Source: Eledone cirrhosa
Taxonomy: Eukaryota
DNA length: 64,000 bases
Assembly (NCBI GenBank): GCA_964016885.1
Contig: CAXHJY010000495.1
Span: 19,202 to 83,201, forward strand
Direction of reading: 5' to 3'
Shown here: positions 12,217 through 12,271 of the stretch, in pieces
How positions within the stretch are numbered: the first letter of the stretch is position 1
How the letters are laid out: the number at the start of each line of letters is the position of its first letter
Translations under genes and position numbers: made by a program
The notes under the pieces: model-generated
Database searches by the model: none
The model's input: only the letters and a program-made list of their open reading frames with translations
Told to the model about the DNA's origin: nothing

Positions 12217-12271
12217 ACTGCTATATATATTTCGGTGACAGCCATCTTTGGCTGTGACCTCTTCAGGCAGT
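12217..12271 (-). ncRNA. Type I hammerhead ribozyme with intact consensus
   Basis: Minus strand: actgc-CTGAAGA-ggtcacagcca aaga tggctgtcacc-GAAA-t atat a-TA-gcagt. Stem I is 5 bp perfect, stem II closes on G-C, stem III is 2 bp with a palindromic loop, cleavage triplet AUA. Confidence 0.9.

Follow-up and report, generated by a model that had tools for sequence, protein, structure and literature searches.

A type I hammerhead ribozyme motif on the minus strand at 12217..12271 of the stretch of Eledone cirrhosa DNA analyzed here (64 kb, positions 19202-83201 of an 83-kb contig; hereafter the window) is very probably the hammerhead of a Hydra-type Penelope-like element (PLE), carried in a short, 5′-truncated terminal-repeat copy and likely to be a weak cutter that acts as a dimer or with the help of a protein. 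The copy that contains it (12039..12375, minus strand; sibling matches begin at 12375) is a 5′-truncated solo pLTR of a family that we designate family A, and it has the longer of the two 3′ ends found in that family and no ORF. A first-pass annotation of this DNA missed both the retrotransposon origin of the motif, present in thousands of copies, and its short, palindromic, dimer-requiring stem III.

Anatomy, copy number and subfamilies of the hammerhead

The minus-strand sequence given in the first-pass annotation is, letter for letter, that of the contig from 12271 to 12217, and its reading as a genuine hammerhead, which is of type I, is borne out, with every core nucleotide present and the predicted cut site where it had been placed. 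The sequence features of the type are present, namely a CUGANGA/GAAA/UH core and a three-way junction that is open at stem I, and the assignment draws on sequence, fold and descriptor. Read along the minus strand, the 5′ arm of a 5-bp stem I (12271-12267) leads into the core from C3 to A9 (CUGAAGA, 12266-12260), stem II (12259-12234; 10 pairs plus one C-C mismatch at position 4, with a 4-nt loop), G12-A14 (GAA, 12233-12231), A15.1 (12230), U16.1 (12223), A17 (12222) and the 3′ arm of stem I (12221-12217). From the sequence and the hammerhead numbering, the scissile bond is predicted to be 12222/12221, after an AUA triplet (H17 = 12222). The segment from A15.1 to U16.1 is an 8-nt palindrome, AUAUAUAU (12223..12230, minus strand), the predicted intermolecular helix III of a dimer. 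Directly 3′ of stem I is an AAUAAA (12211..12216, minus strand), which the first-pass annotation had also recorded; it is kept within family A and absent from the sister-family copy examined on the same contig.

The motif is far beyond chance: a strict type I descriptor gave 0 matches in 100 shuffles of the window (a loose one gave 0.12 per shuffle), and the 71-nt fold has z = -3.36, with equally good folds in 0 of 200 shuffles. An Rfam search of the window returned no match at gathering score, and the 72 weak matches within 11300-13300 include none to a hammerhead family; hence, the Rfam library does not cover this hammerhead variant. The motif had also been singled out as the best candidate in the window for an active self-cleaving RNA. 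It is not the sole intact-looking hammerhead there, as three more pass a relaxed descriptor, with C3 at 5649 (minus strand), 13267 (plus strand) and 29851 (plus strand). In the type I motif at 13259-13319 (C3 13267), stem I is AU-rich and 8 bp long, stem II again has a C-C mismatch at position 4, and the palindrome is AUAUAUAU, as in the motif at 12217..12271; its wider family is present in many fetched loci. That at 5598-5654 (C3 5649) falls in the same broad hammerhead group, has a G-U-containing palindrome and seems truncated or decayed on its 3′ side, and that at 29845-29887 (C3 29851) is smaller, with a 6-nt palindrome (ACUAGU), a short stem II and relatives in L034 and L035.

Within the 3.0 Gb genome searched, the 53-nt core of the window motif has 1,026 exact copies (reversed-pattern control, 0) and a one-base variant (C11.1 to U) has 3,740 (control, 0). 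A DNA search of the same genome gave 55 matches among the 40 scored of 2,395 candidates; those longer than 200 nt share 87-98% identity and start at, or a few bases from, window position 12375. With A disallowed at position 7, a degenerate pattern matched the genome 2,948 times, and the 100 matches listed are mostly from a sister family that shares stem I and the palindrome with the window motif and differs from it in stem II by one double change (C-G to U-A) and one single change (G-C to G-U). Among 43 hammerhead matches in 30 loci, 25 are identical to the window's; because 3 of the 30 loci overlap others, 37 copies were used for the counts of 3′ ends and variation. The window copy carries the motif of the family majority, with no copy-specific feature. 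The hammerhead varies by 0.8%, as does its core, compared with 0.9% for the downstream and 1.7% for the upstream sequence (33 gap-free copies of the 37), figures that constitute no evidence of selection, the copies having been chosen as best matches and the upstream value including subfamily sites.

The canonical G10.1-C11.1 pair to which the first-pass annotation drew attention is present, but it is a subfamily mark and no sign of special activity, since the larger subfamily, including copies with an uninterrupted ORF, has G-U at this position. The G-U subfamily is ~91% alike over the first 213 nt, and the long-frame loci that carry a hammerhead belong to it; the two long copies of the window's own G-C subfamily that were checked have broken ORFs.

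The parent element and its insertion ends

Upstream extension of the copies reached same-strand coding sequence for a reverse transcriptase (RT) and a GIY-YIG endonuclease (EN) in L031 and L032, both broken and with GIY-YIG Pfam matches (E = 4e-4 and 8e-4) below the Pfam cut-off. A genome search with the RT piece gave 150 scored matches among 25,098 candidates, several of them in frames near 890 aa. L066 and L068 contain ORFs of 891-892 aa that start from an ATG and carry RWK, DKT, YRDD, CxCx5C, YIG, CxxC and CxH; each is a single ORF with RT followed by a GIY-YIG endonuclease, as in EN+ PLEs, and displays the traits of the Hydra clade (RWK, DKT, a CxCx5C linker, CxxC and CxH around conserved E and N, and a C-terminal endonuclease). 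These motifs, together with a visual likeness to the printed Hydra-1_Obim protein, point to placement in the Hydra clade. The Naiad clade was considered and rejected, as the Naiad endonuclease is N-terminal and Naiad elements lack canonical hammerheads. The hammerhead lies 1.18-1.22 kb downstream of the long frame, on the same strand, in five of the six fetched loci; L065 has a long frame and no family-A hammerhead in the 9 kb fetched. The whole 892-aa ORF has no Pfam match and no meaningful match among solved structures; a homologue (P0040) that aligns to it at 37% matches RVT_1 with E = 4e-5, and the 120 homologues listed include one from Argonauta hians at 39%. The ORF at L066:2619-5291 owes its length to two low-complexity insertions of ~130 and ~45 aa, which follow the RT thumb, precede the endonuclease and are missing from shorter homologues.

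The layout of the element is displayed by L071, where (TA)n is followed by an inverted copy, a hammerhead pLTR, a frameshifted ORF, a second same-strand hammerhead and (TA)n. The pLTR tail there runs into the frameshifted ORF, and the tandem hammerheads are 4,097 nt apart, which is the unit length. Partially tandem pLTRs, an inverted 5′ copy and a tail at one end, all traits of EN+ PLEs, are found in L071 and L032, and the hammerhead stands ~200 nt before the ATG. At ~4.1 kb, the element exceeds the <3 kb typical of Hydra elements, which PMC8557442 gives as a tendency and not as a rule. Long tandem repeats at L032:160-2998 produce open frames of 215-343 aa, Cys/Trp-rich on one strand and Thr/Val-rich on the other.

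These loci bear directly on whether the family could instead be a non-autonomous retrozyme, that is, a tandem-repeat or circular-RNA replicon that is no piece of an autonomous element. Such an origin would suit the many copies that are short and without an ORF, and animal retrozymes have been proposed as derivatives of PLE pLTRs (bioRxiv 10.64898/2026.07.22.740005); however, the 30 loci contain no head-to-tail tandems of 200-400 nt, paired copies are inverted, the 5′ ends are variable and the 3′ ends fixed, and in the longest copies the sequence reaches the RT-EN ORF. The retrozyme reading is largely refuted by the ORF loci and the L071 layout, and we regard it as extremely improbable.

Two fixed 3′ ends occur among the 37 family-A copies (21 long and 16 short), and all ten two-copy loci pair one long with one short arm. 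What separates the two ends is a "tail" of ~105 nt, delimited by copy comparison (12039..12145, minus strand), which in full-length copies runs on into the 5′ leader and ends ~50 nt before the ATG; the short class stops at a (TTTTA)n run (12139..12182, minus strand) that is longer here than in most siblings. Judged from these sequences, two 3′ ends with a tail between them are the "tail" signature described for PLEs (PMC8557442, PMC11167929), the tail being ~105 nt here versus the 30-40 bp reported in PMC8557442. The "~190-nt tail" running into (TA)n that the first-pass annotation described is correct in its extent, (TA)n starting 186 nt past the motif, but it consists of the end of the element's pLTR and the start of its 5′ leader. 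The (TA)n microsatellite at the 3′ end of the element (11958..12030, strand unassigned) is its putative insertion target. Indeed, (TA)n lies within 190 nt in 36 of the 37 copies, in keeping with the (TA)n insertion of Hydra-type elements; because (TA)n is common in the genome, it is the fixed junctions that carry the weight of this claim. Reverse transcription of the window copy likely started at the tail position and stopped ~340 nt further on. A search with Hydra-type homologues found no coding relic, and no second family-A copy is present, within the 64-kb window.

The copy is one of three element pieces crowded together between microsatellites. Its upstream neighbor is a pLTR piece of a second Hydra-type family, B (12375..12763, minus strand), with an inverted 5′ stub (12718-12763); the 3′ end of this piece directly adjoins the family-A copy at its truncated 5′ end, at 12375; a reading of 12505-12763 as a MITE was rejected, as this is the pLTR with its inverted stub. 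The family B hammerhead (C3 near 12622, a 47-nt stem II region, 2,090 genome candidates) has a private change in the window copy, where the base that directly follows the cut site is C instead of G and stem I is broken as a result. Downstream, past the (TA)n, lies a pLTR piece of a third Hydra-type family, C (11690..11935, minus strand; 2,772 genome candidates), with a hammerhead-like motif whose core reads CUGAUCA instead of CUGAUGA, as in 12 of 12 loci examined, and which has a perfect ACGCGCGU palindrome and a 23-nt hairpin-forming insert between stem I arm and core. By its sequence, this motif would be either a rearranged variant or a ribozyme that has died and nevertheless continued to spread. 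A decayed family C copy occurs at 47153-47277 of the window. At L061 (C4:240287500-240295500 of the genome), three family-C inverted pairs recur with a period of ~2.44 kb, and the intervals between them have no Hydra-type coding match; a local tandem duplication may have produced this arrangement. The window also contains LINE-type reverse transcriptase frames with zf-RVT (49987-51552 and 53722-55542, plus strand), with more 3′ fragments nearby.

Predicted folding, dimerization and activity

In the isolated 55-mer, stems I and II have predicted pairing probabilities of ~0.99 and stem III one of ≤0.006, and an active monomer fold with a closed stem III is predicted to cost 2.7-4.2 kcal/mol. In native flanks, the probability of stem I drops to 0.04-0.13 because an upstream UUCGG pairs with the CUGAA of the core. 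The motif had been described as "textbook, apparently intact"; its core is indeed intact, but it is no textbook monomer, since stem III is a single A-U pair (pairing 0.6%) and is predicted to be essentially unformed. When two copies are cofolded, the minimum is a double hammerhead in which the copies exchange stem I strands and are joined by an intermolecular helix of 8 bp, and it lies ~6 kcal/mol below two monomers; in the cofold with flanks, the probability of the palindrome helix is ~0.3. The A15.1-U16.1 segment is self-complementary at 8 of 8 positions, as in dimer-type PLE hammerheads, and the motif has neither the stable stem III nor the 4-bp stem II of canonical monomer-active hammerheads, its own stem II being 10 bp.

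The palindrome is general among the hammerheads of this genome. Type I motifs from the fetched loci and the window form 23 clusters, 15 of which have an 8-nt A15.1-U16.1 segment, and across these 15 clusters self-complementarity holds for 44 of the 45 inner pairs, the bases themselves differing, compared with 19 expected from composition; the clusters are related, and the descriptor required the core and not the palindrome. Over the whole contig, 10 of 10 motifs are palindromic, and shuffles yield 0.18 motifs each.

We hypothesize that cleavage takes place in tandem elements. In a tandem pLTR-ORF-pLTR transcript, with hammerheads ~4.1 kb apart, the two AUAUAUAU palindromes would pair as an 8-bp helix III, the paired hammerheads would swap stem I strands to give two active cores, and the double hammerhead would cut after AUA and release a unit-length RNA; solo copies such as the window's would be nearly silent. 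Published PLE hammerheads offer analogies, among them that of Schistosoma, reported to show no cutting as a monomer and weak cutting as a dimer or trimer (Cervera and de la Pena 2014, PMC4209133), and that of the anole, reported to cut only with its protein (Frangieh et al. 2024, PMC11167929). By the folding predictions and these analogies, a lone truncated copy probably cuts poorly, if at all, when it has neither a second copy nor the element's protein. The window copy is most likely a passive relic, given that it has no ORF and no partner nearby.

One alternative is that the monomer works, with stem I extended through an internal loop of AAUAAA and making a tertiary contact to stem II that compensates for the weak stem III, such that each transcribed solo copy cuts itself. 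All core bases are present, both stems are predicted to form in the isolated 55-mer, an upstream UUCG can pair with the CGAA that follows AAUAAA, and 22% cleavage within one hour is reported for the monomer of an axolotl hammerhead whose stem III has 2 bp (Cervera and de la Pena 2020, PMC7229834). We nevertheless consider this unlikely: stem III is predicted to be scarcely formed and stem I to be largely lost in the motif's own flanks, the stem I extension is altered in the larger subfamily and missing from the sister-family copy, stem II has 10 bp versus the 4 bp of the canonical loop-loop hammerheads whose sizes are given in PMC4209133, and the Schistosoma PLE hammerhead is reported not to cut as a monomer (PMC4209133). 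Were solo copies able to cleave as monomers, host RNAs could be affected by intronic copies in their thousands, for which there is no support here.

At the other extreme, the motif might no longer cut in any form and be kept as a structure bound by the element's protein, to which we give a low probability. The weakness of PLE hammerheads in vitro (PMC4209133) would fit, as would the spread of family C to its 2,772 candidate copies despite the CUGAUCA core. Likewise, mutants of the anole hammerhead are reported to be unimpaired in insertion in vitro, cleavage hence being dispensable for it, and no RNA reads ended at its cut site (PMC11167929), such that a processing role is itself at most putative. 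Set against this are the core bases and the palindrome, kept across the 15 clusters (the core, as opposed to the palindrome, having been required by the descriptor), and the cleavage of the anole hammerhead once its protein is added (PMC11167929). A weak hammerhead, assisted by dimerization or by protein, remains our preferred reading.

A second feature shared by these motifs lies in stem II, where position 4 is unpaired in 14 of the 15 clusters and the 5′-side base is always C (11 C-C, 2 C-U and 1 C-A), whereas positions 2, 3, 5 and 6 are paired in 15, 14, 13 and 15 of 15 clusters with different bases; by stem I, the mismatch clusters represent about four lineages and are not independent, the loci having been picked around three families. 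We suggest, very tentatively and as a rather doubtful possibility, that a position-4 C opposite a pyrimidine replaces loop 2, either docking the partner ribozyme or stem I or serving as the site of a cleavage switch operated by RT-EN, and defines a distinct variant. If true, the stem II variant would be a direct handle on how weak PLE hammerheads get activated and, were the mismatch necessary for dimer- or protein-assisted cleavage, it would help to explain how weak ribozymes are switched on. Visual inspection of file S2 of PMC8557442 shows no C-C mismatch at this position in any of its 26 Hydra rows. A literature search of the text of open-licence papers found neither the stem II mismatch nor this element family. 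Lunse et al. 2017 may already describe the mismatch.

The first-pass annotation had further proposed that the motif, if it lay in a minus-strand intron, could cut a host pre-mRNA. An intact motif in an intron or UTR could be contained in a read-through transcript, and the nearest compatible partner, a hammerhead of the sister family that shares its stem I and palindrome and lies ~23.7 kb downstream on this strand of the contig, could in principle pair with it. The proposal finds no support in the data: no host exon was recognized in the window, where 93 short frames, a subset of those listed, gave 0 Pfam matches (small exons would escape such a search) and four longer frames searched comprise two LINE-type RT relics and two without a match. 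Eight of 13 listed sequencing runs were compared with the stretch: the six that are RNA or possibly RNA yielded no contig on it, whereas X9 and X13, whose kind is unrecorded, do contain it and are uninformative on expression. The copy is moreover 1 of 1,026 exact copies with a motif identical to the family majority, and it lies in the three-element pile-up between microsatellites. Heterodimers with the family B and C neighbors or with the other hammerheads of the window were rejected as well, as their stem I arms differ from those of the window copy and preclude a double hammerhead with it. An effect of this copy on host RNA is therefore highly improbable.

Comparison with known elements and ribozymes

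Family A is a new family of an already described kind, hammerheads in Hydra elements, including an Octopus family, having been published; it adds one more Penelope-like family that carries the hammerhead known for such elements. Its abundance, its uninterrupted ORFs in some copies and its two subfamilies (G10.1-C11.1 versus G-U) make it a convenient test case. The closest likeness is to the Hydra-clade PLEs, with Hydra-1_Obim of Octopus bimaculoides among them, as described in Craig et al. 2021 (PMC8557442): the C-terminal GIY-YIG endonuclease, the clade motifs and the (TA)n target are shared, and so is a type I hammerhead, close to the 3′ end, whose stem III is short and palindromic. The hammerhead given there for Hydra-1_oBim has other stems and a GUU site, and the family differs; a 17-nt piece of the window motif does not occur in the supplement text of that paper. 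Family A is further set apart from the Hydra-clade PLEs described there by its length of ~4.1 kb, its 892-aa ORF and the 1.2-kb spacer before the hammerhead.

The motif also resembles the metazoan PLE pLTR hammerheads described by Cervera and de la Pena (2014, PMC4209133), which are of type I with a long helix II and a helix I of 4-5 bp, have a palindromic 15.2-16.2 region and a dimer-type fold, and occur mostly as solo truncated copies and in opposite-strand pairs 100-700 bp apart. Compared with the minimal form in that account, the window motif has a 6-nt palindrome between A15.1 and U16.1, as in its "less atypical" variants, and is without the extra base between A9 and G10.1.

With Poseidon PAc of Anolis carolinensis, as reported by Frangieh et al. 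(2024, PMC11167929), family A has in common a pLTR that contains a hammerhead, a preference for AT-rich targets and two fixed 3′ ends separated by a tail, although the clade differs. In PAc, the start of the ORF falls in stem II and reverse transcription begins inside the ORF (PMC11167929), whereas in family A the ATG lies ~200 nt past the hammerhead and the long end falls before the ATG. Finally, the non-LTR retrozymes described from coral, mussel and axolotl (Cervera and de la Pena 2020, PMC7229834) have type I hammerheads with a weak palindromic stem III, as here, and these are reported to cut better as a dimer. Such retrozymes are short tandem repeats with no ORF and with contacts between loop 1 and loop 2 (PMC7229834); family A, by contrast, is dispersed, lacks the tandem arrangement of retrozymes and is tied to its own RT-EN ORF.
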